From NCBI GenBank assembly GCA_001773385.1, contig MEWJ01000020.1, positions 1-57,171 of the forward strand: a stretch of 57,171 nucleotides of DNA, in the 5' to 3' direction. Position 1 is the first letter of the stretch. Each line of letters begins with the position of its first letter. The stretch comes from a candidate division WWE3 bacterium RIFOXYD1_FULL_43_17 (lineage in GTDB: Bacteria > Patescibacteriota > WWE3 > UBA101185 > UBA10185). A program made the translations under genes and the position numbers. Below are positions 2,090 to 57,171 of the stretch, piece after piece. A model generated the notes under the pieces. The model ran no database searches, was not told where the DNA came from, and saw only the letters and a list, made by a program, of their open reading frames with translations.

Positions 2090-2102
2090 ATTTTGAATTT
2101 TA

Positions 2103-22380: not shown

Positions 22381-22413
22381 AGGTATGTTATCACAAGTTG
22401 AAGACGCCTCTGG

Positions 22414-24099: not shown

Positions 24100-24115
24100 T
24101 TGGTATTTTTGCGTT

Positions 24116-28047: not shown

Positions 28048-28113
28048 ACAAATATGGCTATATTGTCAGCTAGACAAAATTATCCTGATTACGTAACCAG
28101 TTAGCTGTTGTAA

Positions 28114-38697: not shown

Positions 38698-39711
38698 TCA
38701 ACCTCCTAAATAATTTCCCGTAGTTTTATCAACACGTCTAAGTTTCAATTTTGGTTTGTGAGGAAATCCTATAATGAAGTTGCCGCCGTAAACAATATGT
38801 GTGAGGAAAATTCCTACCACAACGTAAGCTGCCCCAAGAATTGTTTTGTCTTTTTTATAAGCTCTGTAACCTTCAGAGATCAAGAATAATAAGTATAAAG
38901 CTAATCCGCCGAAATATAAGTTCCATAAAAACGGAAAGGCTGACGCAAAAATAGGACCGAAGATTAGGCTCACCAGAAATATTGAAGGTACAAAAAAAAT
39001 AGGTAAACGCGAAGTTTCGGGGTAAATACGTGCAAATTGTCCCCTGTGACGTCCGTATCTCGATATTTGCTTTAGATAAGGGATAAACAGCTTCCTTCGG
39101 TGATGGTAGACGACAGGGGACGGGTCGTAATTAAACTTCCTTCCGTGTGATTTTACGAGTTCCAGGCATAGTTTGGTGTCTTCTCCGGGCCAAAATTCTA
39201 TAGGGAACCCCCCTGCCCTTTCAAAAGATGCCTTCCGTACAAACAGGTTAACGGTGGGGTAGTCAGATATTTCCATACTTTTTCCGGGTTTATGCCTGAA
39301 AACTGTTCCCGCACCCGACATCCAAGACTCCAGCACTCTTCCGGACATCTTTTCCAGTAAACCCGCATCTTTGGGGGTAACTGCAGGTCCGCCCAGTGCA
39401 TACACTTCGGTGTTTTCAAAAATTTCAACTGCCCTGTCCAACCAGTCTCTTTCCGGATAAGCGTCGTCGTCCAAAAAGGCGAGAATATCTCCGGTAGATT
39501 TAGCGGCTCCGTAATTTCTTTTTTCTCCCGGACCTATGGGACCCGAATGTATCAAAATAAATCTGGTGTCCTGAAAATCAAACTTTTCTTCCTCGTCGGT
39601 AATAATTATCACTTCAAAATTTTGATAAGTTAGCTCTTTAAGGTGTGTTATATTTTCCTTCAAGAACTCATTTATTTTTCTGACGGGAATAATAATGCTG
39701 AACTTAGTCAT
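38698..39711 (-). CDS. GT2-family glycosyltransferase with C-terminal membrane helices
   Basis: 337 aa. FSIIIPVRKINEF, GPGEKRNYGA and FLDDDAYP, followed by 3-4 helices. Confidence 0.8.
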   Translation of the reverse strand: MTKFSIIIPVRKINEFLKENITHLKELTYQNFEVIIITDEEEKFDFQDTRFILIHSGPIGPGEKRNYGAAKSTGDILAFLDDDAYPERDWLDRAVEIFENTEVYALGGPAVTPKDAGLLEKMSGRVLESWMSGAGTVFRHKPGKSMEISDYPTVNLFVRKASFERAGGFPIEFWPGEDTKLCLELVKSHGRKFNYDPSPVVYHHRRKLFIPYLKQISRYGRHRGQFARIYPETSRLPIFFVPSIFLVSLIFGPIFASAFPFLWNLYFGGLALYLLFLISEGYRAYKKDKTILGAAYVVVGIFLTHIVYGGNFIIGFPHKPKLKLRRVDKTTGNYLGG

Positions 39712-40537
39712 TATTTAGTTCTCCGGTGTTTACCCTCATTTGAAGTTCTTCATCGTAGATCCATTTCCGCTTACTGGAGTCGTCGTAATATTTTAATATC
39801 TTTAATCTGTAAAAAACAGCTAAGGTGTCCATAACCATATTTCTTATGTGTTTATCAAAAAGAAACTTAGGAGAAAACATAGACTTGCCAAACTCAACGG
39901 TTACATAAACGGGAGCTTCATATATTTTTTTGAAACCAAGATAATTAGCAACTGTCAGCAGCTCGATATCAAATGCAAATTTTTTAATAGCTAATCTGGG
40001 TAAAACTTTAACAAGAACTTCTCTTTTCATCACTTTTAGTCCTGTTTGTGTGTCTCCTAATTTAAGCCCGAAAAGCATTCTTACCAAGGTGTGGTACCCC
40101 CAGCTATAAATCTTCCTCACAAAAGGATAATTAACCTTAGACACCGGGTGCTTCTTGCTCCCGACAATAATGTCCGCTCCGTACCACTCCATGTGCTCCA
40201 ACAACATTGAAATCCCGTTTGGATTTATATCCATTCCCGCGTCGATGAAAGAAACATAGTCACCTTCGGCTCTTGCCATTCCGTATCTTATTGCGTAGCC
40301 CTTGCCTTTGTTTGTCTCATACCCGAATACTTTTAGTTTTTTATTTTCCAGAGATTTCGCAATGTCATATGTTTTATCGAGCAAACCGTCGACGACAACA
40401 ATTATTTCAAAATCCCATCTTGTCTGAAGCAACGTGTCCAGAATATTTTCAAGATCTTGTTTGATTGTTTTTTCTTGTTTATAGGCAGGGACAATTATTG
40501 AAACAAGTTTTTCAGATTTCGTTTGCTCTTTTTCCAT
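39704..40537 (-). CDS. GT2-family glycosyltransferase, polyprenyl-phosphate glycosyltransferase-like
   Basis: 277 aa. VSIIVPAYKQEKTI, VVVDGLLDKT, NKGKGYAIRYG and FIDAGMD. Confidence 0.75.
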   Translation of the reverse strand: MEKEQTKSEKLVSIIVPAYKQEKTIKQDLENILDTLLQTRWDFEIIVVVDGLLDKTYDIAKSLENKKLKVFGYETNKGKGYAIRYGMARAEGDYVSFIDAGMDINPNGISMLLEHMEWYGADIIVGSKKHPVSKVNYPFVRKIYSWGYHTLVRMLFGLKLGDTQTGLKVMKREVLVKVLPRLAIKKFAFDIELLTVANYLGFKKIYEAPVYVTVEFGKSMFSPKFLFDKHIRNMVMDTLAVFYRLKILKYYDDSSKRKWIYDEELQMRVNTGELNND

Positions 40538-41789
40538 TGTTACCTACTATAAAGAATACAGTAAGAAGTACTAAGCTGATTATACCAGCATATATGTCCG
40601 CCCTGATTATGTCATACAAGGTTGAGTGATTTGAGGTTATTAGAAAGTACTGAACTGCTAGACCCGGTAGTAACAACAAAAACACGGAGGTTCTGCTGAC
40701 GGCCAAAAAGAAAAGAATGAGAAAGTTTATGACTATATAAAGTCCGATGAAAAGAGAGAACATGGGAAGGTACTCTACCGAATTCATAAACCTAACTCCG
40801 AAAAATAATCTGGTAAGAAAAGAGGGAAAAACGGAAAAGGCTACGAGTCCTCCTGCAACCAATAATAATTGTAAAGATAAAAATTTAAAAAACGCCCGGC
40901 CGTAATTTAAACCGCGCACAGCCAAAGAAGAGATTGTAGGAAACATCACGGTAGTTACAGCACCTGCGCCGAATAAAAAAATCTTTCCCAAGGTTACAGT
41001 TCCTGCGTAATACCCTGCCATCTCAGGATCAAAATATTTCTTCACAAGGATTAGGTCGATATTATTTAAAAACATGAGTCCAAAATTCACAAACATTACC
41101 GGCAAGCTAAACGCAGCCAATCTTTTGTAATCCTGCACCAGGCTAATATTTTCAAAAACGGTGAGGTTTTTGCGTAATATAAAAAACCCGGTAATCATCG
41201 CCAGCACACCGGCAACGAACATTCCTCCGAATGCTCCGGCCAGCTTAAATCCCAAAAAAATAGCAATTGCTGAAAAGGCAAAGCGGTACACACTTGCTAC
41301 TACGTGATAAAACGCGTAAGCACGGTATCTCAATAATCCCTGAAGATATGCAGGAGGAATTGCACCTACAAAAGTTAATCCCATTAAAGTGCCGAATAGT
41401 GCAATAATTCCCGTATCGCTAATCTGCAGCTGCTCTGAAATACGGAATCTTAATATATAAACTGCCAGGGAAATTCCCGCTCCGACTAGAAGGGACAGCA
41501 AAAGTAATTTCCAGTATAGTGCCGTAAGTTTTTTAGAATCCTGCCTCGAAGAAAGTTCCGAAACATATTTTACCAGCGACACGCCGAACACCCCCGCCGG
41601 AACGCCAACCAGATAGGAAAGTGATATTAAAACATTAAACGTTCCAAAGTCTGCTACAGGAAGAGTTCTTCCTAAAACAAACTGGACAAGATACGAAAAA
41701 ACCGCTGCAAAAACACTGCCCGATCCTATGTACACAGTTCCCATTAAATATCTGTTACTCTTCACTTTTTGTATAAACGCACCGATCAT
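40512..41789 (-). CDS. MOP/Wzx-type flippase
   Basis: 425 aa with ~12-14 hydrophobic helices. Composition and length are typical of polysaccharide-biosynthesis (MOP) proteins. Confidence 0.6.
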   Translation of the reverse strand: MIGAFIQKVKSNRYLMGTVYIGSGSVFAAVFSYLVQFVLGRTLPVADFGTFNVLISLSYLVGVPAGVFGVSLVKYVSELSSRQDSKKLTALYWKLLLLSLLVGAGISLAVYILRFRISEQLQISDTGIIALFGTLMGLTFVGAIPPAYLQGLLRYRAYAFYHVVASVYRFAFSAIAIFLGFKLAGAFGGMFVAGVLAMITGFFILRKNLTVFENISLVQDYKRLAAFSLPVMFVNFGLMFLNNIDLILVKKYFDPEMAGYYAGTVTLGKIFLFGAGAVTTVMFPTISSLAVRGLNYGRAFFKFLSLQLLLVAGGLVAFSVFPSFLTRLFFGVRFMNSVEYLPMFSLFIGLYIVINFLILFFLAVSRTSVFLLLLPGLAVQYFLITSNHSTLYDIIRADIYAGIISLVLLTVFFIVGNNGKRANEI

Positions 41790-43381
41790 AAAGAAGTTCT
41801 CTCGTAGACTTTATAAACTTCAACCCCGCGCACAAAAATACTATCCACATATCTGAGACCAAATCTTTTCTCTTCCACCGAGATATCGTCCCAAACAGGA
41901 TATACAAAATACCTTGTTTTCACGGCAAAAGGTGATAAATCCTCGATAACGGCAAATCCTCCTATTTCGCGGAAAAACGGGTGTATCTGGGTATAATATT
42001 TTTCCTGAAACGCGACGGTGAGTGTTTTCTGGTAATCAGTTCCGTTCATAATTTTTTCCAGTGAGGTGTCTCCGTAAACAGGAACCGTCCCGTCCACAAT
42101 CATTTTATTTTTGAAATAACTGAGCACTTCTCTCTCCCCGATTAGCCATTTAGGTTCCAATACATTTATTCCTCTTTTAAGGCCGCCGAACATCTGGTTG
42201 TAATACGACATGTAATCAGGATGAAGATACAGTACCGGTATGGCAGCAACGACTATCAAAGGAATAAATTTGAGAAAACTTCTACCCTTGATTTTTTCCA
42301 ACAGCCAAATCCAAAATAAAGACGTGATTAAAGACAACATCATAATGTTCGGCAAAATGTACCTATCCAGTTTTTTTGTCGGGATTATTAACTGAGCAAA
42401 ATAAAACACTACGAAAAGCAGGGTGTAGCATAAAAATTTGCGGTGTCCCTCACTAAATATTTTTTTCCAGAAGACTGCGGTTCCGATTAAGCCCAAAATT
42501 AACAGGTACGATGACCTTAGGCCCAAAACAACAAAGTAGTAAAAAAAGCCCGGGTCTTCGACCAATTTTCCGAAGTAGAACTGAATATGCTCCCTTTCTA
42601 TTCCTATCTCCGAAACCCCACGGTACAACGCTGCAAGTGCCTGCCCCGGAAATGCCCACATAGCGGGCCATCCGGCCATAAATACGCCCAGAAACACCAG
42701 TAGCCACAGTCCGATTTTGGGTAAAGCAGACACGATGTTTTTACGCGCCTCTATCAATAAGACTAGTCCCGCGTAAGGAAACATAAACAGTGCCGAAGTC
42801 TTGGTTAAAAAGGCCAGACCCGCAAACACGGCAGAAACAACAAGGCGTTTCTTATTACCGGGTTCGAGCGTGTAATAGTAGAGCCACAAGAACGAGGCTA
42901 ACATGAAGGTCGACATCAAACCTTCCAAATGAAACTCACGTGTCAAAGCAATGTAGAACGGTTCCAATGAAAGTAGTGCGGCAACAAGTAAAGCTTTTCT
43001 TGTCCCAAACAATTTTCTGAGCACAAAAAACGATAGTCCTAACGTAACGCCAATCGCTATTACAACAAAAAGTTTCTGCACAAAATGAAGCTGAAAAATC
43101 ATCTCAATACTATTTTCGGCGGGATTACTCTCGGCATAAAAGTTATATACTTTGATTGCAGCAGTACCGAGCCACATCAAAGTAACACCCGGGTGATATT
43201 TTTGAATTGTCTTCTCCAAATCCCAGGTGAAAACGCCGGTTCCAAAATCGTAACTCCGCGCCTTCCATTTCCATACGTCGGTGTTGAATGTATCGTGGCC
43301 CAAATCGGGCAACCGCGACACAATAAATAAAAGGACAAAAAGTATTTCAAATATGTATTTTTTTATAATTTTCAGCATCAA
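41786..43381 (-). CDS. ArnT/PMT_2-like GT-C membrane glycosyltransferase
   Basis: 531 aa with ~11 helices. YHPGVTLMWL, LEPFY, FLTKTSALF and PTKKLDRYILP blocks are shared with 44861..46435. Confidence 0.6.
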   Translation of the reverse strand: MMLKIIKKYIFEILFVLLFIVSRLPDLGHDTFNTDVWKWKARSYDFGTGVFTWDLEKTIQKYHPGVTLMWLGTAAIKVYNFYAESNPAENSIEMIFQLHFVQKLFVVIAIGVTLGLSFFVLRKLFGTRKALLVAALLSLEPFYIALTREFHLEGLMSTFMLASFLWLYYYTLEPGNKKRLVVSAVFAGLAFLTKTSALFMFPYAGLVLLIEARKNIVSALPKIGLWLLVFLGVFMAGWPAMWAFPGQALAALYRGVSEIGIEREHIQFYFGKLVEDPGFFYYFVVLGLRSSYLLILGLIGTAVFWKKIFSEGHRKFLCYTLLFVVFYFAQLIIPTKKLDRYILPNIMMLSLITSLFWIWLLEKIKGRSFLKFIPLIVVAAIPVLYLHPDYMSYYNQMFGGLKRGINVLEPKWLIGEREVLSYFKNKMIVDGTVPVYGDTSLEKIMNGTDYQKTLTVAFQEKYYTQIHPFFREIGGFAVIEDLSPFAVKTRYFVYPVWDDISVEEKRFGLRYVDSIFVRGVEVYKVYERTSL

Positions 43382-44904
43382 CGGATCATCTCCTCGACAG
43401 TGATATACGGGCCTATCCTGCCCTTATTTGAAACTTCAAAAATAGCCCGGCCCGAGGAAACACCTTTGTTTAATTCTATGTAATAATACCTCGTTCCTTT
43501 CGGTAATTTTGTTGGATCCTTTGTCGCGTTATTAAACACGTACTTTGAAACCGACTCCGCGTCCGAACTTCCGTAAACTACTCTCGTGCCTAAAGGAACT
43601 TCCGTTTCTAAGAATTTTTTCAGGTCAAGACGGGTGTCGTTTCTCAAAAATCTTACAGCGTTAAAAACCGAAAAATAGAACGGCGGTAAAAATAGTAAAA
43701 GCGCTATCGGAAAATAAAGAGGCTTCATTCCCAAACTCACTTTGTTCATTGCCCACACGGAAAAGTATCCGAATATTATTGAGACGAACGGATACATGAC
43801 GAAATAGTATTGTGAGCGGCTTTTTTCAAATCCGGAAATATAGTAGATAAGCGCGTACGCCGGAATTATTAAAAACATGAGTGAAACGTCAAATCTCGAG
43901 AATGTCCCTTTCAAAAATCTTATTAGTACAATACCTGATGTTAAAAATAGAGCAGCTAGAATCGTATAACCCAGATCGTCCGCTATTTTAAAACTCATAT
44001 CGGTGAAAAACTTATTTACGTGCTGAGCAAAATCCACGGACCCGACATTGGCAAACTGCCAAAACGCTCCCACTGCAGTGTCTTTCCGGCTGAAAGTTTC
44101 ATAATCCAGCGCCGCGTACGGGGTACCCAATAAAAACCCCAAAAAGGCAAAAATCCCGGATAAAAAGAGGTTCAAAATTGTCTTAAAATAGGGAAAATCC
44201 CCCCTTGTTTCCGATAACCGCATTTTCACCAATACCCAGCGTAAAAACGCGGCCAGAGGCACTGTAACGGCTCCCAGACCCCCATTATATTTGTTCGAGG
44301 CTGCTATTCCTATAAACAGCCCTGACAACATGTAGTCTATGGGGTATCCCTGAGTGATAATACGCGCGGCAAAGTAAATTCCCCAGGACAGGAAAAAAAG
44401 CATCGGCGCATCGGGCAGCGAATAGTGCGAGTGCCAGACATGAAATGGAATCACGGCAAAAGCCAGGGCCGAGAGCAGACCCACCTTTTCGCCGAACAGA
44501 ACCTTTCCTGTTTTGTATATCGGAATGACAGTTAGCGCCCCAAGTACTGCTGCAAAAACGCGCGTAATAAAATAGAAAACGACGGTGTCATCCCACATTA
44601 ACGGAAATATCTTAATCATAAAATTCTGAAAATTGTAATCGATGGCAAGTTCTCGGATCTTAGCGAATGCCAGAAAAACAAAATAGTTAGCGTAAATAAA
44701 AAAGTGGGGCCAATCGAAATGCCCGGGATTCGGTTCAAACCTTACTCCAAGAGCCGATTGAACAATTGTAGATTCGTCCGGGTGAAAAATAAAAGGAAAG
44801 CCGTGACTTATTCCTGCCAGTCTTAATATTAGGGCAAGAAATATTATCAGGTAGATGAGACTACTTGTCTTCCTTGACATATATTCTCCAATATTCCAAT
44901 CCAT
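43378..44904 (-). CDS. GT39-like (ArnT/PMT_2) GT-C membrane glycosyltransferase
   Basis: 508 aa. First-loop HPDESTIV, then YKTGKVLFGEKVGLLSALAFAVIP, typical of GT39. An alternative ATG at 44880 would shorten the overlap. Confidence 0.65.
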   Translation of the reverse strand: MDWNIGEYMSRKTSSLIYLIIFLALILRLAGISHGFPFIFHPDESTIVQSALGVRFEPNPGHFDWPHFFIYANYFVFLAFAKIRELAIDYNFQNFMIKIFPLMWDDTVVFYFITRVFAAVLGALTVIPIYKTGKVLFGEKVGLLSALAFAVIPFHVWHSHYSLPDAPMLFFLSWGIYFAARIITQGYPIDYMLSGLFIGIAASNKYNGGLGAVTVPLAAFLRWVLVKMRLSETRGDFPYFKTILNLFLSGIFAFLGFLLGTPYAALDYETFSRKDTAVGAFWQFANVGSVDFAQHVNKFFTDMSFKIADDLGYTILAALFLTSGIVLIRFLKGTFSRFDVSLMFLIIPAYALIYYISGFEKSRSQYYFVMYPFVSIIFGYFSVWAMNKVSLGMKPLYFPIALLLFLPPFYFSVFNAVRFLRNDTRLDLKKFLETEVPLGTRVVYGSSDAESVSKYVFNNATKDPTKLPKGTRYYYIELNKGVSSGRAIFEVSNKGRIGPYITVEEMIR

Positions 44905-46435
44905 TAACGTAAAGTGAAGAATCTTTTCTGAACCTTGTACCGCTTTCCAGAACTTTTTCCGGAATTTCCTCGTTTATTCCTAATACCAGGAGTTCGTAAT
45001 CGCTTACCCCGTTGACCCTTATATCTGCAACCTTAGAGTTTGAGTAGATGGCTTTCATGGGTTTTGTGTCTATAAAACCAAGTTCCGGCTCGTTGCCGTA
45101 CCTATTGATTATGTAGTCTTTAAGGGCGGGAACTGCTATGCCGAAAGGCTTTTGGGCAATAATAGTGTTGGCCGAGTTAGCCGTACCGAACAAAGGGCTC
45201 GTGTAAGTAAAGTAATAAGGAAAGTCCGTGATGGCAGGCACGATGTAAAAAAGTGTAAACATGAAAAGGGCGACGCTCATAAAAACCTTTTTTGATTTTG
45301 AGGTTTTCAGGAATGAGTAAAATCTTATGATTCCGTACGATGCTAATAGGGTTAAAAATGGATAGAGGGGAAGCATGTACCTGTCGAGTTTTTTAGAAGG
45401 ATAGAACATGATAAAAAAATATCCGAGATAGAACAAAGCGAGATAAATATACGGATTGTGATATTTAGCCTTAATATTTTTCAACACGTTGGAAAAAGAG
45501 TTTACACATCTCATGAGACAAAGAATCAAACCCGCAATAAGAAACGGCGTCGATTTAATAAGTAACACTAATGGATAAAATAATAATCCGGCGTCCTGAG
45601 TTGTTTCTCCGAACACTATTTGCTCGTGTCCTTTTCTTATACCTACTCTTTCGGACTCGGCAAAAATTTCGGACAGGTAGTAAACCGGTCTTACCCACAA
45701 CGCGGGAAAGAGTACGAAGGTTGTTACGATAAATGAGCCGAGTATTGTGAAAAAATAGTTTAGGAGCCCCTTTAAATCTTTTTTATTTGCAAAATAAGCA
45801 GTAGAAAAAAGAAGAACAAAAAAGAGTGCCCCTATTCCAATGCTTTTAGTTAAAAACGAAAGCGATAGAAAAACGCCGGCTAATATCGACTGCTTGTAAC
45901 TAAAACTTTTCAGGTTCAACCAGCTAATCAACAAACCTATAAGTACAAACAAGGCCAATAAGACGTCCATGTGGTAAAGGCGCGAATTTCCCATAAAAAA
46001 AGGCTCGAGAGAGAACAAAAATACCGAAAAGTAGGCAATTTTGAACCCCACGACTTTGGAAAGGTAGTACAAAAGAATAAAGGTCAGAACCAGCTGCGCT
46101 AACACTACCGAATATTTGGCTACGGTATTGAAGGCTATAAAATTGTACTGATCGTAAGTGGTTACACCGGTAATCTGTTTATATATTTCTATGGGCACAC
46201 CGGTAAGCCACATTAAGGTCACGCCCGGATGGTAGTGCTGATAAGTGCGTTCAAAGTCTCCTGATTTTAACCCAACAATAAATTGCTGAGACCTGTAATG
46301 CCAATTAACTCCGTCGGGATTTATCTCATCGGGACCCAACATAATGAAACGAGTCAGACCGAATACGATAATAAAAAAAACGAGAGCTACAGACCTGTTT
46401 TTAAAAAGAGCCGCCAGGCGTTCCAATACTTTCAT
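44861..46435 (-). CDS. ArnT/PMT_2-like GT-C membrane glycosyltransferase (paralog of 41786..43381)
   Basis: 524 aa. YHPGVTLMWL, LEPFF, FLTKSIGIG and PSKKLDRYMLP blocks occur in the same order as in the paralog. Confidence 0.6.
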   Translation of the reverse strand: MKVLERLAALFKNRSVALVFFIIVFGLTRFIMLGPDEINPDGVNWHYRSQQFIVGLKSGDFERTYQHYHPGVTLMWLTGVPIEIYKQITGVTTYDQYNFIAFNTVAKYSVVLAQLVLTFILLYYLSKVVGFKIAYFSVFLFSLEPFFMGNSRLYHMDVLLALFVLIGLLISWLNLKSFSYKQSILAGVFLSLSFLTKSIGIGALFFVLLFSTAYFANKKDLKGLLNYFFTILGSFIVTTFVLFPALWVRPVYYLSEIFAESERVGIRKGHEQIVFGETTQDAGLLFYPLVLLIKSTPFLIAGLILCLMRCVNSFSNVLKNIKAKYHNPYIYLALFYLGYFFIMFYPSKKLDRYMLPLYPFLTLLASYGIIRFYSFLKTSKSKKVFMSVALFMFTLFYIVPAITDFPYYFTYTSPLFGTANSANTIIAQKPFGIAVPALKDYIINRYGNEPELGFIDTKPMKAIYSNSKVADIRVNGVSDYELLVLGINEEIPEKVLESGTRFRKDSSLYVNGLEYWRIYVKEDK

Positions 46436-46436
46436 A

Positions 46437-47906
46437 TTATTTCTTTAAAGCCCTGACAAATTTCTTCGCGTAATTTACACCGCTGATAACTTCACTTTTG
46501 GTCAGATAGCCCGGAATGAAAAATGCCCAGATAAGCATCCCGAATACGACCACGAAAAACGGTATTTTAATATAGAGCGGTAAAAACGAAACCATTGAGA
46601 TTGCGAATGCCTGTCCTAAAATCGCGAGGTGATCGATATTGAAAAAACTGAACTTTAATTTTTTACTTATTGCGATATTTATATATATAAAGGACGCCGT
46701 AGCGCCGAAAGCCATTCCCCAGGCCATCCCGGGAAGTGCTCCGAGTGCGTGGTAACTTGCGAAAAAGAACGCGGCCGTTCCCGCTAAAAGAAGTACGAAA
46801 CTTATGATCATATGCTTGACCATTTTTGCAGGAATAAGGACGCTGGATTTCACAATATTTATAAAGGAGTAAAGAATGAAGGCGAAAATAACCGGCGGAA
46901 TAAGAGTATAGGACTTGTCATATTTATCTCCTCCCACCACCAAACTAACTATTTCCGGTGCCCAGTATGAGGCGAAAGCTGCTGCCGCTATAACACTGAT
47001 GAATATCTTGTCGAAATTCCTGGTGAAAAGTTTTTTGAAGTCGGCAAAGTCTTTAACATATTTTTCTGAAAGGACCGGGAGATTTACGTCGGTCACGGCG
47101 TCCGAAATACTCATTAACTTTTTCGCGTACAAAAGTGCGAATGCAAAAATGGCCACTACCTCAGGAGAGTTGAAGAGTCCCAGTGCATTGCTTCCGAACT
47201 TTTCCCAGTTGGTGTAGATAATCTTCACAAGATAGATAGCCATACTAATAGAAAATATTTCTTTGAACAGCCGCCTGAAGTCTGCGTTGCTCGGCCACTT
47301 CATACTTCCTCTTAAGGGTTTGAAAGCGATATAGGATAATACGACAGAACTTAGTGCGTTAAACATGAAGAACGCGTAGAAGTAACCGTTAACCCTGTAT
47401 GTTAAAACCAGCGGTATAAAAATAACCACGCTAGCTGCGGCAATAGCAATCTGATATAGAAAAAGCTGTTTAAATCTTTTCGTTCCGGAAATCACCGAAT
47501 TCAAAATGCTTTGAACCCCCTGAAAAATTAAAGTCAGGGCATATATTTTAATAGGAAGGACGAGAATTTCGTTTTTATAGATGTCGACCGCAACGTATCT
47601 CGCCGCAAAAAATAGCCCGATAGCAATAGGAATTGTGATGGCGTAACGTATCACTGCCGAAGTTATGAATATTTTGAAAACTTCTTTATCATCTTCCGCC
47701 GAGGAAATTTCCCGCGTACTGGCCGAAGCAAGTCCGAGGTGCTGGTAAATACCCAAGGCGCCTCCTATTGATATTGCCAGTTGTATAACTCCCCACTCCC
47801 CCACACTTAGTACCCGGATTATTACGAACGTCTGTACCAGTCCCAAAAGCATGGCCATAGATCTGGATGCAAAGCTAATTATTTGCCATTTTCCGAGTTC
47901 CTTCAT
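46437..47906 (-). CDS. MOP/Wzx-type flippase
   Basis: 489 aa with ~14 helices. N-terminal SRSMAMLLGLVQTFVIIRVLSVGEWGV resembles the MOP family. Confidence 0.65.
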   Translation of the reverse strand: MKELGKWQIISFASRSMAMLLGLVQTFVIIRVLSVGEWGVIQLAISIGGALGIYQHLGLASASTREISSAEDDKEVFKIFITSAVIRYAITIPIAIGLFFAARYVAVDIYKNEILVLPIKIYALTLIFQGVQSILNSVISGTKRFKQLFLYQIAIAAASVVIFIPLVLTYRVNGYFYAFFMFNALSSVVLSYIAFKPLRGSMKWPSNADFRRLFKEIFSISMAIYLVKIIYTNWEKFGSNALGLFNSPEVVAIFAFALLYAKKLMSISDAVTDVNLPVLSEKYVKDFADFKKLFTRNFDKIFISVIAAAAFASYWAPEIVSLVVGGDKYDKSYTLIPPVIFAFILYSFINIVKSSVLIPAKMVKHMIISFVLLLAGTAAFFFASYHALGALPGMAWGMAFGATASFIYINIAISKKLKFSFFNIDHLAILGQAFAISMVSFLPLYIKIPFFVVVFGMLIWAFFIPGYLTKSEVISGVNYAKKFVRALKK

Positions 47907-47910
47907 ATTT

Positions 47911-50019
47911 CTATTTAATAAGTATATTCCCTAAGTATAAATTTCGGGTCTTCACTTTATTGGACATACCCACGAAAACTCTGTAGTCACCGGGTTCCAA
48001 AAAGGACGGGAAATTAACGTTCAGGTCCTCGACATAATAGCGGTCTGAATCCCAATCGGCCGGTTGTATAAGGGAGAAAGAGGGAAGATTGGCTATTTCA
48101 TATAACTTTCCGGTCTTGTCATTCATAAAGGTCATGTACATAACAAATCCGTTCAGAGAATCGCTTTCTCTTTTGAAAAACACGAGTCTGAAATTTTCTG
48201 CTACACCTCTTGTTGCTTCTTTAGGATAATCAAAATCGGCAATTTCGGTTCCGAATAATATGTCGTACGCGTATTTTGCGGTGTAGCTAAATTTTTCTTG
48301 CATTGGTAATAAGTCGGTTTTTTCATGCACCCCCACTTTTTTGAAAACAAACAAGTTTCCGCACCCGGTCAGCAGTTCATAATCTTTGCTTTTAATAATG
48401 TCGGCGGTGACGTCACGCACCAGACTTGTCTCAACATCTAATATAGTTAGAATTTTGCGGGAGAAAACATCGACTATCACATAATCCGCACTTGTGTAGA
48501 GCGCCGGAAATATCGCGTAAGTTTCTCTTAAAGATAAATGAGCTCCCAGGTAATCCGGTCCGGTGACGGAAGCTCCGTCGGGAATCAACCCAACAATCTT
48601 TTCGGCACACTCGACATCTTTGTTATCCAAATCCGGCAGTTTTACAACATCCCCCACTTTTAGTTTGCTTTTCCACACAGCATCCGGATCCGACTCTGCC
48701 AAAACTCTTTTTCGGACTGCCTGGTCTATCCAAAGGTAAACGGGGTTATTAAAAACGTACGACGTGTGTATACCAGCAATAACCATCGCTAATCCAAAAA
48801 ATATCTGAACGCCTTTTATAACGCGGGGCCGTCTCTTTTTAAAGTTCCCCAAAGTATCCGCGAGCATTCCTATGGCGTAAATAGACGAAATGAAAAGAAC
48901 AGGAATTATCATGGATATTCTGTGGTTTGTTATCTCAGCCGTACCGACACCGTCGGCTGAAGTCAGGTAGTTTATTAAAAAGTCGGGCGCTGCTACTAAC
49001 AATATCTGCGGATATGCTAAAGGCAAAAATAAAACAGGGTCGAAAGTTTTTCTCAAATTATCTATCCTGTCGCCTCCGAAAAATATTCTAATCGCCTTTT
49101 GATGGTCCATAACCATTCCTACAAGAACATCGGTATAGGATTCGCCGAAGGCATCATACCTGCTTAAAAAATAGTTGGGTTTTGACACGTCACGTGTGGT
49201 GTCCCCCGCAATACCTATTTCACGCGCGAATTTGTTGTATCCCGCAACTCTATACTGGGAATAAGCCGGAATAATTATAAAGAATGCGGTTATAAACCAA
49301 ACCGTAGCTACTGCAAACATGGACAGAGCAAGTTTTCCGGTAACTGTCTGATAAAATTTCTTCCCTTCTTCTTTTAGTGGTCTGAAGAAAAGTATAAACA
49401 GCGAATACATCACAACATATAAAGGAAGCTGTTCTTTTCCGGCCATCGTAATGATAAGAAGCACCCAAAATATAATTAAGTTCTTTTTGCTGAAGTTTTT
49501 CTCTTTGTACATTTTCTCGAAAACATAGAATGCTCCGAAAAAGAAAGGAACTGCTGCCGTAACTCCGTGAAAGCCGGTCCATGCATTCAAGTATCCGAGT
49601 GCCGGATATAAAAGGTACGCGACGCCGAGCATCGCTGAAGCCGCTTTGGAGCCCAGTCTCAGATAAGCTATCTTGTAAACCAAAAAGGCTGCCAGGATGA
49701 GGATTACGAACTGCGAGATCACCAGCGTAAGCGGGTGCTGAAATACTGCAAATAAAGGAAGAAACAACAGTAATATAGGGTCGACGTGGCTCATTGCCCA
49801 TCTCGGCAGGTTAGTCCCGAAATAGTCGGTAAGGTACATAAAGTTCCCGTGCATCGTATTCCAAAGCATCTGGGACATGTTCCCGAGGTCAAACTTTCCG
49901 AAATCGAAATTATTGTACCGGAAAACATTAATCCGGATATTTACAGCGATATTTACCGCAACAAACGCGGTTAGTAACAAAATGAATCTATTCTCTCTAA
50001 TAAGCTTTATGATTTTCAT
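47911..50019 (-). CDS. DUF2079-type polytopic membrane protein (GT-C-like) with C-terminal soluble domain
   Basis: 702 aa. FDFGKFDLGNMSQMLWNTMHG ... SHVDPILLLFLPLF matches the DUF2079 N-terminal signature. Confidence 0.6.
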   Translation of the reverse strand: MKIIKLIRENRFILLLTAFVAVNIAVNIRINVFRYNNFDFGKFDLGNMSQMLWNTMHGNFMYLTDYFGTNLPRWAMSHVDPILLLFLPLFAVFQHPLTLVISQFVILILAAFLVYKIAYLRLGSKAASAMLGVAYLLYPALGYLNAWTGFHGVTAAVPFFFGAFYVFEKMYKEKNFSKKNLIIFWVLLIITMAGKEQLPLYVVMYSLFILFFRPLKEEGKKFYQTVTGKLALSMFAVATVWFITAFFIIIPAYSQYRVAGYNKFAREIGIAGDTTRDVSKPNYFLSRYDAFGESYTDVLVGMVMDHQKAIRIFFGGDRIDNLRKTFDPVLFLPLAYPQILLVAAPDFLINYLTSADGVGTAEITNHRISMIIPVLFISSIYAIGMLADTLGNFKKRRPRVIKGVQIFFGLAMVIAGIHTSYVFNNPVYLWIDQAVRKRVLAESDPDAVWKSKLKVGDVVKLPDLDNKDVECAEKIVGLIPDGASVTGPDYLGAHLSLRETYAIFPALYTSADYVIVDVFSRKILTILDVETSLVRDVTADIIKSKDYELLTGCGNLFVFKKVGVHEKTDLLPMQEKFSYTAKYAYDILFGTEIADFDYPKEATRGVAENFRLVFFKRESDSLNGFVMYMTFMNDKTGKLYEIANLPSFSLIQPADWDSDRYYVEDLNVNFPSFLEPGDYRVFVGMSNKVKTRNLYLGNILIK

Positions 50020-50027
50020 TTTTACCG

Positions 50028-50714
50028 TCAGTCGATAAATCTGTATTTTATCAACGTGAACAATGCGTGTATCCCGTCTCTCCAGGTTATTTTTTTACCT
50101 TCGCTGTGGGTGCGGCCTCTGTATGAGATTGGGACTTCTCTTATCTTTAGCCCCGACTTTAGTATTTTTGCCGTTATTTCAGGTTCAAAATCGAATCTTT
50201 CGGATTTTATATTTACATTTCTCACAAAGTCACCAGGCATTAATTTGTAACAGGTTTCCATATCGGTAAGCATTACTCCGAAGAAAACATTCGTAATTAA
50301 TGTCAGTAATTTGTTACCGAAGTAATGCAAAGTAGACATATCCTCGTAACTTCCGGAGAATCTACTTCCATATATAACCTGGGCGTTGTGTTCGTCTAAA
50401 GCGCGTATAAGTTTGTGGTAATCATTGGGGTCATACTCAAGATCGGCGTCCTGAACAATTACATAATCGCCGGTTGTATGCTCAAACCCGAGCTTTAACG
50501 TGTGCCCTTTACCTCTGTTCTTCTCCTTATAATAGAAACTGACGTCGGGGTGCACGGCCTCAAGCCTCTTTAAAATGTCGGTCGTACCGTCGGTAGAGGC
50601 ATCATCCACTACAACAATTTCTTTATCCAAACCTTCAACGGCTTTGATCTCGTCCAAAATTTTCTCAATCGTGTTTTTTTCGTTGTACACGGGAACAACA
50701 ATAGATAGCTTCAT
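50028..50714 (-). CDS. GT2 polyprenyl-phosphate glycosyltransferase (DPM1/ArnC-like)
   Basis: 228 aa. LSIVVPVYNEKNTI, VVVDDASTDGT, NRGKGHTLK and VQDADLEYDP. Confidence 0.8.
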   Translation of the reverse strand: MKLSIVVPVYNEKNTIEKILDEIKAVEGLDKEIVVVDDASTDGTTDILKRLEAVHPDVSFYYKEKNRGKGHTLKLGFEHTTGDYVIVQDADLEYDPNDYHKLIRALDEHNAQVIYGSRFSGSYEDMSTLHYFGNKLLTLITNVFFGVMLTDMETCYKLMPGDFVRNVNIKSERFDFEPEITAKILKSGLKIREVPISYRGRTHSEGKKITWRDGIHALFTLIKYRFID

Positions 50715-50716
50715 GT

Positions 50717-52252
50717 TTAATCCTTCCGTTCAAACCTTACTATTTTAGCAAAAAACTCCGCTCCGTTTACATTATAACTAAAATCTTTCACAGGAGTCAG
50801 GTATGGTCGTGAGTCAAGGTCGAGCTCCATTTCAGTGTTGTGTTCGTTGGTTATAAGAAAGTAGTCGGCTCCGGTCTTCTGAAGGGCTTCGTATGTTAAG
50901 TTTTTCTTGCTTTCAGTATTGTAGTAAAAACCTGAAACCTTGGGAGTATCCAGGACATTTAAGTAAAAGTCGGACACGCTGCTTACGTCGTTGTAAGCAA
51001 CTTTTCCCTCAAGGTTACGCACCGCGTAGTCGGCAGCGTTCTTTACGGAAATGAATATATCCTTATGCAATTTAATTACCGAACCTGACCAGAGAGATGT
51101 GATTACCGCTAAAGTAACAACCGTAGCCCAAAATTTCTTTTTGTATATGAAAAATACTGTTGCGGCTTGTAAAACAAATAACACCCCGAGTAGTGCTTTA
51201 TCCAAAACGAGAAACTGCAGTTTAAGAAAATATTGGGAACCTAAATAGAAGAGTAAAAGTGCCCCCGCAAGAACTAAGATGTTTTTGTTCTCTTTCCCGT
51301 TTTCCCACCATTTTTCCAGACTTAAAGTTAGGATAAGAATTAACAAAGGAACAACTGCCACAAAAAGTCTTGGAATAGCTGCCGGCCACAAGAGTATTAA
51401 TAAAAGTTCCAAAAAAAGAAAAATTGAAACTTGTGCATTATTTTTTAAAAACTTCCAGACGTCCTTTTTAATAAACGCAAATGCCGGGACGGATCCATAA
51501 ATAGCCAGTAAACTCGCAACGTAAATCCAGACCATTTTTAGGTCGTACGCCCTTCCTGCCGGCTCATCGAGGTATTTAGAACCGAGCGGGTTTCTGTACA
51601 AAAACCATGGTAAGACTATAAGCAGGGCGCCTAGCCCAAAATAAATGTAAGGCGTCAGTTTTTTTAAATCCAACTTTTTTCCGTGGTCTATAAATAAAGA
51701 CAGAAATAATGACCCGGCCAATATATATCCTTCAAATCTGGTTAAAATAGAAAGTCCGGACACGATGCCGAGTACGAATAAACGTTTAAAACTCCAACTG
51801 TCCTTCCATAATTTATATAAATAAATCGCGAGAAGAGCTAAAAGCGCGAACGGAACATCCGCCATAACTCTTATCGACCAGTACAAAAAATCCGGATTAA
51901 ACAAAAGGAGGAGCATTCCTAAAAAGACAAAGCGTTCGTCCTTAATATACTGTTTTAAAAACTTTCCGAACAAAAACATTCCGGCCAGACCTGTCACGAG
52001 CATAAAGCCCCTGGCCCAAAGTACGGGGTCCGCTGCCTCCGGTCTTGCGGCTAATACAATAGAGTACAAAGGAGGTCTTTTTTCGTCCTGCGGGTAACTC
52101 CCTTTTCTTATATGTTCCGAAGCTCTTAAAATTCTGTAAGAATCCCCCCACTCTGCCGTATTCACATTCAGCAAAAAAAAGTGTACGAGAATAAACAAAA
52201 CATAGGGTAGGAACTTAAATATAGTTTTTGGTTGCAAAGTCATATATTTCAT
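50717..52252 (-). CDS. ArnT-like GT-C membrane glycosyltransferase
   Basis: 511 aa. Early-loop EWGDSYR and EKRPPLYSIVL (the ArnT eKPPL-type motif). About 11 helices and a soluble C-terminus. 38-nt overlap with the upstream gene. Confidence 0.55.
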   Translation of the reverse strand: MKYMTLQPKTIFKFLPYVLFILVHFFLLNVNTAEWGDSYRILRASEHIRKGSYPQDEKRPPLYSIVLAARPEAADPVLWARGFMLVTGLAGMFLFGKFLKQYIKDERFVFLGMLLLLFNPDFLYWSIRVMADVPFALLALLAIYLYKLWKDSWSFKRLFVLGIVSGLSILTRFEGYILAGSLFLSLFIDHGKKLDLKKLTPYIYFGLGALLIVLPWFLYRNPLGSKYLDEPAGRAYDLKMVWIYVASLLAIYGSVPAFAFIKKDVWKFLKNNAQVSIFLFLELLLILLWPAAIPRLFVAVVPLLILILTLSLEKWWENGKENKNILVLAGALLLFYLGSQYFLKLQFLVLDKALLGVLFVLQAATVFFIYKKKFWATVVTLAVITSLWSGSVIKLHKDIFISVKNAADYAVRNLEGKVAYNDVSSVSDFYLNVLDTPKVSGFYYNTESKKNLTYEALQKTGADYFLITNEHNTEMELDLDSRPYLTPVKDFSYNVNGAEFFAKIVRFERKD

Positions 52253-53408
52253 CTATAGCCTCAATTTTCTTGTTCCACGAATATTTTGATCTGATGAGCT
52301 GAATATCTACATCTCTCGGTTTATCCGTGATCTCAATTATTTTATCCGCTATGGCTTGAGGCTCCAGGTTATCCAGATAGAATACTCCGCGGATATCCTC
52401 GGATATTTTAAATCCGGAAACGAGGCAGGGAATTCCGCACGAGAGTCCCTGCATAACAGCTTTGGGAAGCCCTTCCCAGGATGACGGCAACACAAATAAA
52501 TCCGCTACCTGATACGCTATCGGAACGTGGGGATACGGAGTGTAACCTGTTTTAATAATTCTATGTTCGACTTTTTTTTGTTTCATCTGCTCATTTAATT
52601 TTTCCACATAAGTGGGGTCGCCCGAACCCGATAATAAAAGTTTGAAGTCTTCGGGAAGAAGAGCCAATGCATCAATTAAAATGTGGATGTTTTTTCTCTC
52701 ATTCATTACACCGTGGTTTAGTATAACTTTATCGAATCTGTCGAAACCTATTTCTTTGCGGGATTTTTCCTTTTCCTCTTCGCCGACAGGAACGAACATT
52801 TCGGTGTTCACTCCGGTCTCTATAAGAAAACATTTGTTCGGATTTACTCCGTAATACTCCTGAGCTTCTTTTTTATTCTCTTCGCTTACGAAAATACATG
52901 CAGACGCGGCTTTTACCGCCATCCTGTCCGAAAATACGGCCATGGGCCAACCCAGCATCTTAGACATAGGTTTGATGGGCTTTCCCTGCTTCTCGAACGT
53001 AACCCATCTGCCTTTCGCGGTATTGTGAAAGTGAACCACCAAAGGTATCTTAAGTTCTTTTGCCCAGGGAAAATGTTTTTTCAAAAATACTCTGTAAGCG
53101 TAAAGCCATATAGCAAAATGCCCGTGGCAGTGAATAACGTCCGGCTTATGTGTTTTTCTGTATTTTAAATAGCGGTAAAAAAGCACAACGCTGCTTGTGA
53201 AAAAAATTGTGTCCGGATATGGTTCACGGTCGATTGCATTTATCTCCAAACCATCAAGTTTTACAGGGCCGCCCGAGTTTGGCCACTGTCCGCAGAACAA
53301 TGTTACTTTGTGACCCTGTCTCAGCTGTGCCGCGGTAATTTCGTATGGATGGGGAGCCAGTCCCTGCCAGGGATTAGGCCAGTCGTAGACTATTCTCAAG
53401 ATATTCAT
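52215..53408 (-). CDS. GT4-family glycosyltransferase
   Basis: 397 aa. PSSWEGLPKAVMQGLSCGIPCLVS motif. Confidence 0.75.
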   Translation of the reverse strand: MNILRIVYDWPNPWQGLAPHPYEITAAQLRQGHKVTLFCGQWPNSGGPVKLDGLEINAIDREPYPDTIFFTSSVVLFYRYLKYRKTHKPDVIHCHGHFAIWLYAYRVFLKKHFPWAKELKIPLVVHFHNTAKGRWVTFEKQGKPIKPMSKMLGWPMAVFSDRMAVKAASACIFVSEENKKEAQEYYGVNPNKCFLIETGVNTEMFVPVGEEEKEKSRKEIGFDRFDKVILNHGVMNERKNIHILIDALALLPEDFKLLLSGSGDPTYVEKLNEQMKQKKVEHRIIKTGYTPYPHVPIAYQVADLFVLPSSWEGLPKAVMQGLSCGIPCLVSGFKISEDIRGVFYLDNLEPQAIADKIIEITDKPRDVDIQLIRSKYSWNKKIEAIDEIYDFATKNYI

Positions 53409-54598
53409 GATTTTAATTCCTTAAATATTCCCTCATAAGAGTCTAGCATTTTATCAAGTGTAAATCTCTCCGTTGCCTTATTTAAGGCATTAACGCCCAG
53501 CTTCCTTGCCAACTCCGGATCACTTTTCAGCCCGTTCAGTTTGCTCTTAAATACGAAGAATTTTCCCGGGGTCACAAGATAACCGGTCTCCCCATCGGTT
53601 ACAGCGTCCGATACTCCGCCCAGGTCAAAGGCTACGACAGGAAGTTGACCGAACATCGCCTCAACTAAAACCATGGGAAATCCTTCCAGCCTTGAAGTCG
53701 GAAAAACAAATGCGTCAAATCTTGCGGGATTGTACATGCGTAAAACTTCGGCGTAATCCAATTTTCCCCTCAAAGTTATTCTTCCTTCGCTTTTACCTGA
53801 AATCGCGCCCAACTCTTCTTGCAAATCTCCCGCTCCGACAATATCCAAAGTAAAATCTTTCATGTCTTCTCCGGCAACAATTTCAGCAAGTTTTCCTATG
53901 CCTTTTGAACGGATTAACTGACCAACGTAGAGTAAGCGGAACTTTCCTACAGCACCTCTTTCTCCATCAACAGTTTCAACTTTTAAAGGTTTTATTCCGT
54001 TATTAATAACCCTAACTTTGGCGTCCTCGACAAAGGTTTCATCGATTAATGCTTTTTTTACTGAGTTGGACACCGCTACGACGACATCGGAACCGTGCAC
54101 AAATTCTCTTTGGACCGTAAAGAAATTTTTCAAAACGTGAGGAAGGTCGAGAGCGGCTCTTAATAAACCTTTTATTGATGAGTCACTTTTAAACTTCGTT
54201 TGAAGCTCCCCGATTTTTGTACCGTGTGAAATAGAGACGATAGGCAATCCGAACTCTTCTTTATGTCTGATTACACCTACCGCGCCGGAACTTTGTCCTA
54301 AAATTAATTCGAATTCTTCTGTCTTTTGTAGTTCACGGAAAACCTCGTATGATTTTTCTACCCAGCCGTCTTTTTTTGAAACGGTTACAGAACTGTAGTG
54401 TGCTGTTTTGCAGTCTACAAAAATGTATTTAACACCGTTCTCTACCGCCTGCTCTTTTTCTTTTGCAAATCTAGGGGTAAAAACCGTAACTTTATGACCG
54501 CGTGAAACCAGCCCCTCACACAAAAGTTTATTTTGAGTTTCTAATCCGCCGTAAGAACCACTGAAGGTCGTAGATTTTATAAATACGGCAATTTTCAT
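53405..54598 (-). CDS. GT4-family glycosyltransferase
   Basis: 397 aa. PTSRLEGFPMVLVEAMFGQLPVVAFDLGG motif. Confidence 0.8.
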   Translation of the reverse strand: MKIAVFIKSTTFSGSYGGLETQNKLLCEGLVSRGHKVTVFTPRFAKEKEQAVENGVKYIFVDCKTAHYSSVTVSKKDGWVEKSYEVFRELQKTEEFELILGQSSGAVGVIRHKEEFGLPIVSISHGTKIGELQTKFKSDSSIKGLLRAALDLPHVLKNFFTVQREFVHGSDVVVAVSNSVKKALIDETFVEDAKVRVINNGIKPLKVETVDGERGAVGKFRLLYVGQLIRSKGIGKLAEIVAGEDMKDFTLDIVGAGDLQEELGAISGKSEGRITLRGKLDYAEVLRMYNPARFDAFVFPTSRLEGFPMVLVEAMFGQLPVVAFDLGGVSDAVTDGETGYLVTPGKFFVFKSKLNGLKSDPELARKLGVNALNKATERFTLDKMLDSYEGIFKELKS

Positions 54599-57167: not shown

Positions 57168-57171
57168 AGTT

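Follow-up and report, generated by a model that had tools for sequence, protein, structure and literature searches.

The 57,171-bp contig MEWJ01000020.1 of the candidate division WWE3 bacterium RIFOXYD1_FULL_43_17 (contig C20 of the assembly) was analysed over its entire length, which is referred to below as the window. Between positions 40512 and 52252 it carries a dense array of membrane-bound glycosyltransferases of the GT-C type, interleaved with candidate flippases and polyprenyl-phosphate sugar synthases. With a probability of roughly 60%, this array is the core of a conserved operon for a multiplied, multi-component transmembrane glycosylation system that makes or extends a surface glycan. 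Such systems work in three steps: synthesis of a polyprenyl-phosphate sugar by a GT-A enzyme, its passage across the membrane by way of a flippase, and transfer of the sugar by a GT-C enzyme on the outside (PMC8035078). The window represents 6.6% of an 863-kb assembly with a completeness of 93.6%. One of the array proteins, which belongs to the DUF2079 family, is 92% identical to its closest named orthologues, from 'candidate division WWE3', and all close loci come from metagenome-assembled genomes (MAGs) of Patescibacteria, the candidate phyla radiation (CPR). The assembly gave no 16S rRNA match, and named homologues such as these served to place the lineage.

The genes of the array lie on the minus strand in the order WzxA, C1, C2, C3, WzxB, DUF2079, GT2p and C4, where C1 to C4 denote relatives of the PMT_2 family (Table 1). 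The list of open reading frames (ORFs) and the Pfam matches agree with the gene order and coordinates proposed in a first-pass annotation, from the glycosyltransferase family 2 (GT2) gene at 39704, here GT2a, to the GT-C gene at 50717. The array divides into two sub-modules, C4-GT2p-DUF2079-WzxB and C3-C2-C1-WzxA-GT2a. In each, one GT2 enzyme resembling dolichol-phosphate mannose synthase (DPMS) and one Wzx-like protein accompany two or three GT-C enzymes. Each Wzx-like protein may serve its neighbouring synthase.

All five proteins first proposed to be GT-C transferases belong to that class, C1 to C4 by family and the DUF2079 protein by fold, and annotation with hidden Markov models did not place most of these membrane proteins outside it. 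C1, C2 and C4 score above the Pfam cut-off for PMT_2, and C3, which falls just short, qualifies through its paralogy to C1. C4 aligns with the C1 profile at an hhalign probability of 93% and matches the LA_3751/LA_3752 family (37 bits); its profile found no meaningful match in the PDB. The label GT39 given earlier to the protein at 43378 (C2) lacks specific support, as this protein matches PMT_2 only and has no match to PF02366 (PMT). The latter profile is passed only by C4 (33.7 bits) and by a fusion protein at 6850, with C1 (20.2) and C3 (18.1) below the cut-off of 22.7. PMT_4TMC is not among the Pfam matches of the array GT-C proteins, and the combination of PMT and PMT_4TMC that marks a GT39 protein O-mannosyltransferase was not found.

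Each of the five GT-C proteins conserves one or more acidic residues in the first loop after its first transmembrane (TM) helix, counting residues that are invariant or at least 95% conserved over 17-27 orthologues. D35 in the first outer loop of C1 is invariant, as are D44, D65 and D80 of the DUF2079 protein. C2 has a HPDE motif (D43-E44) after TM1 that is conserved in 23 orthologues, C3 conserves D41 in its first loop, and in that of C4 residues E34, D37 and E57 are at least 95% conserved, with D56 nearly so. The lysine- and arginine-rich N-termini suggest that this loop faces outward, and the adjacent DPMS-class GT2 genes hint that the GT-C enzymes may use lipid-phosphate sugar donors.

The genes at 41786 and 44861 (C1 and C3) had been called paralogues from shared sequence blocks, a relationship borne out by 30% identity over 426 amino acids (E 1.8e-40) and by sister clades with 100/100 support. 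The blocks YHPGVTLMWL, LEPF[YF], FLTK and P[TS]KKLDRY[IM]LP all occur in both proteins and in the same order. In a maximum-likelihood tree, C1, C2, C3 and C4 form separate, supported orthogroups (C2 with 100/99), and the split between C1 and C3 is older than all species sampled. Because these paralogues are old and individually retained, their phylogeny argues for distinct, non-redundant reactions.

Their relationship to ArnT raises an alternative in which the acceptors of these transferases are membrane lipids or glycolipids and not a polymer or protein, much as ArnT adds aminoarabinose to lipid A. The best PDB match of the C1 orthologue profile is indeed ArnT (5EZM, E 1.1e-6), a Ugd-type dehydrogenase gene stands at the start of the operon on the contig, an ArnC-like GT2 lies beside an ArnT-like GT-C, and CPR bacteria, which scavenge lipids, might conceivably tailor them. 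This is nevertheless highly improbable. Equivalents of ArnA, ArnB and ArnD are absent from the window proteins, so that the marks of an ArnT/lipid A pathway are not found there, and the best scores for the ArnT and ArnC equivalogs are far below the cut-offs, at 101.6 bits against 567 (in the 6850 fusion) and 56 bits against 529, respectively. CPR bacteria are also thought to lack an outer membrane and lipopolysaccharide (PMC6744442), and five distinct transferases together with GT4 enzymes argue for a multi-sugar product.

A literature search found no paper on the DUF2079 family. The array protein matches Pfam DUF2079 (PF09852) over residues 35-510 with 123.6 bits against a cut-off of 28.2, and its gene is single-copy and present in 31 of the 151 Patescibacteria genomes sampled. 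Profile searches gave no sequence-level match in the PDB, and hhalign comparison of this protein and of two polytopic proteins of 561 and 758 amino acids elsewhere in the window with the PMT_2 profile was uninformative (probability 0.3-15%). An AlphaFold2 model built from 20 orthologues reached a pLDDT of 87.1. Its best Foldseek matches are all GT-C enzymes, namely AglB (3WAK, 1.6e-6), STT3, DPY19, PglB, ArnT, AftA and EmbB. By this predicted structure, the membrane domain was shown to have a GT-C fold.

A C-terminal extracytoplasmic beta-sandwich follows at residues ~545-702 (~160 amino acids; window 47911-48385), and it resembles the O-antigen-binding domain of Wzt (2R5O; E 3.5e-3, TM-score 0.5). 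Large GT-C enzymes are thought to bind polymer acceptors through such domains (PMC8035078), and the modelled likeness to Wzt is a weak hint that the acceptor may be a polymer. The domain is also similar to generic lipid- and sugar-binding sandwiches, NPC2 and RhoGDI among them.

The genomic context of DUF2079 in distant phyla offers a further indication of its role. The orthologues listed in the homologue search are all close and unfused. Of about 20 loci from Chloroflexota and from genomes labelled 'Gammaproteobacteria' that include an upstream flank, 8 carry a GT2p-like gene directly upstream of DUF2079, and 3 more have one a single gene away. The directly upstream genes, GT2p- or GT2a-like, are found in the distant-phylum MAG loci L057, L059, L064-L066, L068, L070 and L078. 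GT2 and DUF2079 look like a conserved two-gene pair in these phyla, and their independent pairing supports a predicted role for DUF2079 as consumer of the product of the GT2p-like enzyme.

The two GT2 enzymes of the sub-modules, first described as polyprenyl-phosphate GT2 proteins, retain this putative assignment, as their whole catalytic domains align best with DPMS 5MLZ, followed by ArnC and GtrB. For GT2p, the best PDB match is the Pyrococcus DPMS (PfDPMS, 5MLZ; E 9.5e-18), and GT2a matches the same structure at E 3.3e-14 (residues 11-228 against 24-238) and aligns with ArnC over the full length. GT2a and GT2p are 33% identical to each other. Among curated families, GT2p scores best with AglJ (116.7 bits); its scores are 71 bits with PgfS and 48.4 bits with PpgS, the latter over the full length. 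Membership of both in the DPMS/ArnC/GtrB class is supported by these alignments, making them candidate polyprenyl-phosphate sugar synthases. The two proposed Wzx-like flippases were likewise recovered, each with Polysacc_synt or Polysacc_synt_3 matches and ~12 TM helices. Candidates for dedicated flippases of Wzx or GtrA type are represented by two Polysacc_synt genes in the array and by a GtrA/DPMS_TM domain fused to a GT2 enzyme encoded upstream.

The operon is tightly packed and extends beyond the array. The 14 genes from UDP-glucose 6-dehydrogenase (UGDH, 57167) to GT2m (38698) are separated by gaps of -44 to +8 nt, and matches resembling promoters and terminators are no commoner than in shuffled sequence. 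GT2m is the final glycosylation gene of the operon and keeps this position in relatives; its PDB matches are to generic GT2 enzymes only. The contig breaks off 4 nt before the start codon of UGDH (57167-57171). The last two genes of contig C7 have orthologues (87% and 91% identity) in the complete genome G001, of the same genus, where they immediately precede the UGDH orthologue, an arrangement also found in other relatives. On this comparison, the operon, with predicted continuation on C7, is of at least 16 genes. One of the two C7 genes encodes a GT2 enzyme of 375 amino acids fused to a GtrA/DPMS_TM domain, which aligns with PfDPMS from end to end (E 1.7e-38), and the other encodes a soluble GT2. 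With this linkage of UGDH and C7 in relatives, the operon comprises four DPMS-class GT2, five GT-C and three GT4 enzymes, two Wzx-like proteins, UGDH and GT2m. The end of C7 (11481-14618) also encodes a membrane protein with a CAP domain and an 86-amino-acid membrane protein, alongside the DPMS-like GT2 with GtrA/DPMS_TM and the soluble GT2. To regard the 86-amino-acid protein as a GacJ- or DPM3-like helper is speculation.

Conservation of the operon is wide within Patescibacteria. A locus search seeded with DUF2079 returned 65 loci, and the strict order UGDH-GT4c-GT4b-GT4a-C4-GT2p-DUF2079-WzxB-C3-C2-C1-WzxA-GT2a-GT2m is kept in ~35 Patescibacteria species at 40-70% identity, with a reduced core at ~30% identity in more distant loci. 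Within the genus, the region from 38.7 to 57.2 kb is collinear at 73-98% amino acid identity. In the class-level relatives G028, G031 and G040, the array is contiguous with a GT4 block and the Wzy_C-PMT_2 fusion, which in the window lie at 6.8-13.2 kb. This contiguity indicates that the two conserved parts of the window belong together and that insertions have separated them in this genus. In most relatives, WzxB and C3 flank an additional gene, encoding an MprF-type 'flippase-like' protein (LPG_synthase_TM, 139 bits; for example L019:13617-14558). It is missing from this position in the genus of the window and in its two nearest relatives, L039 and L063, and no LPG_synthase_TM gene was found in the whole genome to which the window belongs.

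The multiplicity of GT-C enzymes extends to the genome as a whole. PMT_2 has 17 matches, one of them on a co-binned 1.4-kb fragment, and adding DUF2079, the 561- and 758-amino-acid proteins and a C5 paralogue on contig C55 gives about 20 GT-C-type genes among ~830 ORFs of at least 80 amino acids, or about 2% of the genes. In 40 relatives, PMT_2 matches number 1-25 per genome of 0.6-1.4 Mb. A phylum-wide sample (E <= 1e-5) has the family in 105 of 121 genomes, mostly in 1-5 copies; the class of the window has 6-16, and a few other families reach 18-27. The density of GT-C genes is high compared with ordinary bacteria, yet typical of the lineage. The first-pass view of a capacity beyond what an O-antigen or capsule locus normally carries is correct, but the expansion characterizes the lineage as a whole and is not specific to this genome. 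A literature search for GT-C expansion or GT39 in CPR bacteria found no paper. Tandem PMT_2 paralogues also occur elsewhere in the genome, four at C55:26877-33670 and two at C46:23111-26162, and form a clade of their own in the tree. The 1.4-kb contig C30 contains a second C2-C1 junction with 85-88% amino acid identity to the window copy and no megablast DNA match. It was rejected as a second locus, this small fragment being most likely from a co-binned relative.

Table 1. Features of the operon (first 14 rows) and of the remainder of the window, with the matches on which their assignments are based. Positions are those of the window.
Feature	Position	Strand	Assignment	Evidence
GT2m	38698..39711	-	GT2 with ~3 C-terminal TM helices	Glycos_transf_2 62.6 bits; TM 238-309
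GT2a	39704..40537	-	Soluble, 277 aa, candidate polyprenyl-phosphate sugar synthase	Pfam GT2 86.7 bits; 0 TM
WzxA	40512..41789	-	Wzx-like MOP-family flippase candidate, ~12 TM	Polysacc_synt 67.5, Polysacc_synt_3 39 bits
C1	41786..43381	-	PMT_2/ArnT-type GT-C, YHPGVTLMW motif	PMT_2 49.3 bits
C2	43378..44904	-	PMT_2-type GT-C	PMT_2 53 bits
C3	44861..46435	-	GT-C paralogue of C1	PMT_2 23.3 bits, just below the 26.1 cut-off
WzxB	46437..47906	-	Wzx-like MOP-family flippase candidate, ~12 TM	Polysacc_synt_3 61.8, Polysacc_synt 57.7 bits
DUF2079 protein	47911..50019	-	Predicted GT-C-fold domain and C-terminal beta-sandwich	Pfam DUF2079 123.6 bits
GT2p	50028..50714	-	Soluble, 228 aa, DPMS/DPM1-like candidate polyprenyl-phosphate sugar synthase	GT2 123 bits
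C4	50717..52252	-	PMT_2/PMT-type GT-C	PMT_2 39, PMT 33.7 bits
GT4a	52215..53408	-	GT-B fold, cytoplasmic	Glycos_transf_1, Glyco_transf_4
GT4b	53405..54598	-	GT-B fold, cytoplasmic	Glycos_transf_1, Glyco_transf_4
GT4c	54599..55804	-	GT-B fold, cytoplasmic	Glycos_transf_1, Glyco_transf_4
UGDH	55782..57167	-	UDP-glucose 6-dehydrogenase	Three UDPG_MGDP_dh domains; TuaD 561, NDP-sugar dehydrogenase subfamily 472 bits
RmlB	1097..2134	-	dTDP-glucose 4,6-dehydratase	TIGR01181 421 bits, above curated cut-off
RmlD	2103..2975	-	dTDP-4-dehydrorhamnose reductase	TIGR01214 258 bits, above curated cut-off
WzxC	5664..6908	+	Third Wzx-like protein	Polysacc_synt 64.5 bits
6850 fusion	6850..9711	-	Wzy_C (WaaL/Wzy-like)-PMT_2/ArnT-like fusion	Wzy_C 44, PMT_2 77.8, PMT 58.8 bits
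C5	13273..14646	-	PMT_2-type GT-C	PMT_2 41 bits; LA_3751/2 family 52 bits
728-aa membrane protein	19794..21980	-	Variable cassette	Four invariant cysteines in two outer domains
561-aa orphan polytopic protein	22414..24099	-	Predicted GT-C fold, variable cassette	AlphaFold2 pLDDT 79.6
758-aa polytopic protein	24116..26392	-	Variable cassette	Own GT-C_AftD match faint, E 0.0056

The remainder of the window adds further enzymes of the same classes. Initially, the window as a whole was credited with about ten candidate transferases and three flippases; it has three Wzx-like proteins and nine proteins of GT-C type, the number of modules rising to ten when the Wzy_C half of the 6850 fusion is included. 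The protein at 19794 is without a GT-C assignment. Of the four polytopic proteins that had been left unassigned, the one at 13273 has a PMT_2 match, and that at 22414 has a GT-C fold according to its AlphaFold2 model, for which Foldseek returned STT3 (6EZN, 2.6e-4), DPY19, AglB, PglB, AftD, ALG9 and Pmt4; it has no Pfam match. The 24116 protein is probably an AftD-type GT-C, since three of four homologues match PF11847 (GT-C_AftD). Only the 19794 protein stays unassigned, with no Pfam or PDB match of its own. It belongs to a family of 82 cluster representatives in a HMMER search; none of the 30 family members scanned matched Pfam, and the family gave neither a PDB match nor a profile match to the other orphan family.

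These last three genes lie in a stretch of low GC content (19794-32084; 35-38% against 40-43% elsewhere) that even species of the same genus do not share and that also carries several methyltransferase genes and a GT10-like enzyme. It looks like a variable cassette of the kind found in O-antigen loci, with variation of the serotype type. In G001 and G002, the region between the orthologues of 13273 and 33007 contains different, only distantly related membrane proteins. GT4 genes number at least 10 in the window, alongside several for GT2 enzymes. A soluble protein of 430 amino acids (3076-4368) is encoded between the rhamnose genes and a GT4 gene; it is matched by neither Pfam nor NCBIfam models, and the relatives compared have no homologue. 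The fourth Polysacc_synt gene of the genome is on contig C59. Other contigs of the genome encode UppS, MraY, a PglC-like transferase and a second Glycos_transf_4 protein.

Such an inventory is also reminiscent of an ordinary Wzx/Wzy repeat-unit pathway, in which diphosphate-linked oligosaccharides would be flipped, the Wzy_C fusion would polymerize or ligate them, and the GT-C enzymes would add optional side chains of the gtr type. Three Wzx-like proteins, ten or more GT4 genes, several GT2 genes, the Wzy_C domain at 6850, RmlB and RmlD, and a low-GC cassette that differs between species of one genus (19.8-32 kb) would all be at home in such a locus. We consider this quite unlikely as an account of the array, because the GT-C genes belong to the conserved core and their orthogroups are kept in ~35 species, unlike optional gtr-type decoration, and because the four DPMS-class GT2 enzymes in the operon exceed the usual needs of side-chain addition. 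Moreover, the window has neither an initiating phosphoglycosyl transferase nor a stand-alone Wzy. Its one Wzy_C domain is part of the fusion, and initiating transferases are found on other contigs, C6 and C8.

In a transmembrane glycosylation system built on the operon, GT2p, GT2a and the two GT2 enzymes of C7 would take single sugars from nucleotide-sugar donors and attach them to polyprenyl phosphate on the cytoplasmic side, with precursors supplied by UDP-glucose dehydrogenase and by RmlB and RmlD. The three GT4 enzymes would probably build a lipid-linked primer, and WzxA and WzxB would carry the lipid-linked sugars to the outer face. There C1, C2, C3, C4 and DUF2079 would each catalyse a single, specific linkage that lengthens or branches a conserved surface glycan. 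The first-pass annotation spoke of periplasmic glycosylation; given the presumed absence of an outer membrane from CPR bacteria (PMC6744442), the outer face of the cytoplasmic membrane is the appropriate wording. The donor lipids and sugars, the pairing of flippases with substrates, the order of the steps and the acceptor are the parts of the model that we infer.

The nature of the acceptor separates two readings. The proposal that the locus serves either the decoration of a surface polymer or protein O-glycosylation is upheld for the enzyme classes and the donor logic by the family and fold assignments; the choice between these acceptors is one that sequence does not settle. Glycosylation of proteins at the cell surface, for instance of S-layer proteins, pilins or adhesins, comparable to that by actinobacterial Pmt, Streptococcus mutans Pgf or Haloferax AglD/AglR/AglS, would fit enzymes of the PMT_2/PMT family, the scores of GT2p with AglJ (116.7 bits) and PgfS (71 bits), and the proximity of the DUF2079 and 561-amino-acid models to STT3/AglB, PglB and DPY19, and it has a precedent with a Wzx-like protein in AglD/AglR/AglS (PMC3871713). 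Nonetheless, it appears unlikely. Known O-mannosylation needs one or two GT-C enzymes, compared with five non-redundant ones plus three GT4 enzymes here, and the presence of these five conserved, distinct enzymes with three GT4 enzymes fits serial construction of a glycan better than single-sugar protein mannosylation. PMT_4TMC is missing from the Pfam matches, and C4 and the 6850 fusion alone pass PF02366. Pfam scans of the window proteins showed neither pilins nor S-layer proteins, and the Foldseek ranking, at TM-scores of 0.35-0.44, does not discriminate between types of acceptor. The product of the operon is most likely a wall-associated or lipid-anchored polymer.

Several points weigh against assigning the operon to polyprenyl-monophosphate-dependent assembly of a surface glycan. 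GT2p and GT2a have no membrane segment, and a GacJ- or DPM3-like partner is not encoded inside the array. The scores of all GT2 and GT-C proteins are far below the cut-offs of curated equivalogs, and the similarity of the DUF2079 C-terminal domain to Wzt is modest (E 3.5e-3) and shared with the generic beta-sandwiches NPC2 and RhoGDI. Wzx-type proteins usually flip diphosphate-linked oligosaccharides, and a role for them with monophosphate sugars is only an analogy. Precedents for Wzx-type flippases in such modules are GacK (PMC8035078) and AglR (PMC3871713).

Known systems resemble the operon in different respects. In the GacI/GacJ/GacK/GacL system of the Streptococcus pyogenes group A carbohydrate, a GT2 enzyme, a proposed Wzx-family flippase and an outer GT-C are likewise encoded in one operon with rhamnose-pathway genes and cytoplasmic glycosyltransferases (PMC8035078). 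The glycan product predicted here resembles, by analogy, side-chain addition by streptococcal GacI/GacK/GacL. However, Gac has one of each component, in contrast to five GT-C, four DPMS-class GT2 and two Wzx-like proteins, and the array has no GacJ-like partner or ABC exporter. The GT-C families also differ, being PMT_2 of the YHPGVTLMW type and DUF2079 in the array, with scores far below family cut-offs. The GtrA/GtrB/GtrC and CsbB/GtcA/YfhO systems follow the same three-step logic, in some cases with a PMT_2-type GT-C (GtlB, GttB), but they rely on small GtrA-type flippases and membrane-anchored GT2 enzymes and make optional decorations (PMC8035078). In the present operon, the sole GtrA domain is fused to the DPMS-like enzyme of C7, and the GT-C genes belong to the conserved core. 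Haloferax volcanii AglD/AglR/AglS shares the DPMS-like GT2, delivery by a Wzx-like protein and a membrane-bound transferase acting on the outside; there, a hexose on polyprenyl phosphate provides the final mannose of the N-linked glycan of the S-layer protein (PMC3871713). No oligosaccharyltransferase motif or S-layer gene was identified in the window.

For the multiplicity of enzymes, serial construction by many GT-C transferases makes the assembly of mycobacterial lipomannan and lipoarabinomannan the nearest functional analogue. Mycobacteria and corynebacteria build these polymers and arabinogalactan with Ppm1 and PimE, MptA/B/C, EmbA/B/C and AftA-D, a set in which many GT-C enzymes act serially on the outer face with polyprenyl-monophosphate sugars from a DPM1-like GT2. 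The mycobacterial genes are dispersed, whereas those in WWE3 form one operon. The enzyme families differ as well, only the 24116 protein being faintly related to AftD, and the 0.86-Mb genome is without a mycolate envelope. The components of the operon are of known kinds, the logic of donor, flippase and GT-C is already well known, and no new principle is involved; the arrangement is an uncharacterized, lineage-typical variant.

A bolder proposal can be put forward tentatively, and we regard it as doubtful: in WWE3 and its CPR relatives, assembly of the main conserved surface glycan may take place almost wholly outside the cell, with three to four polyprenyl-monophosphate sugars, five linkage-specific GT-C enzymes including DUF2079, and Wzx-type flippases for monophosphate-linked sugars. 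If true, extracytoplasmic polymer assembly like that of mycobacteria would have arisen independently in a 0.86-Mb genome, and might be essential for an episymbiotic lifestyle.

CPR bacteria, or Patescibacteria, account for much of the diversity of bacteria; they live attached to other cells, and their capacity for biosynthesis is almost nil. With 6.6% of the DNA devoted to one glycan island and about 2% of genes encoding GT-C enzymes, the surface glycan is likely central to attachment, host recognition or phage resistance. The operon provides a defined gene set of five orthogroups, each with a candidate catalytic aspartate, and would give a first functional handle on DUF2079.

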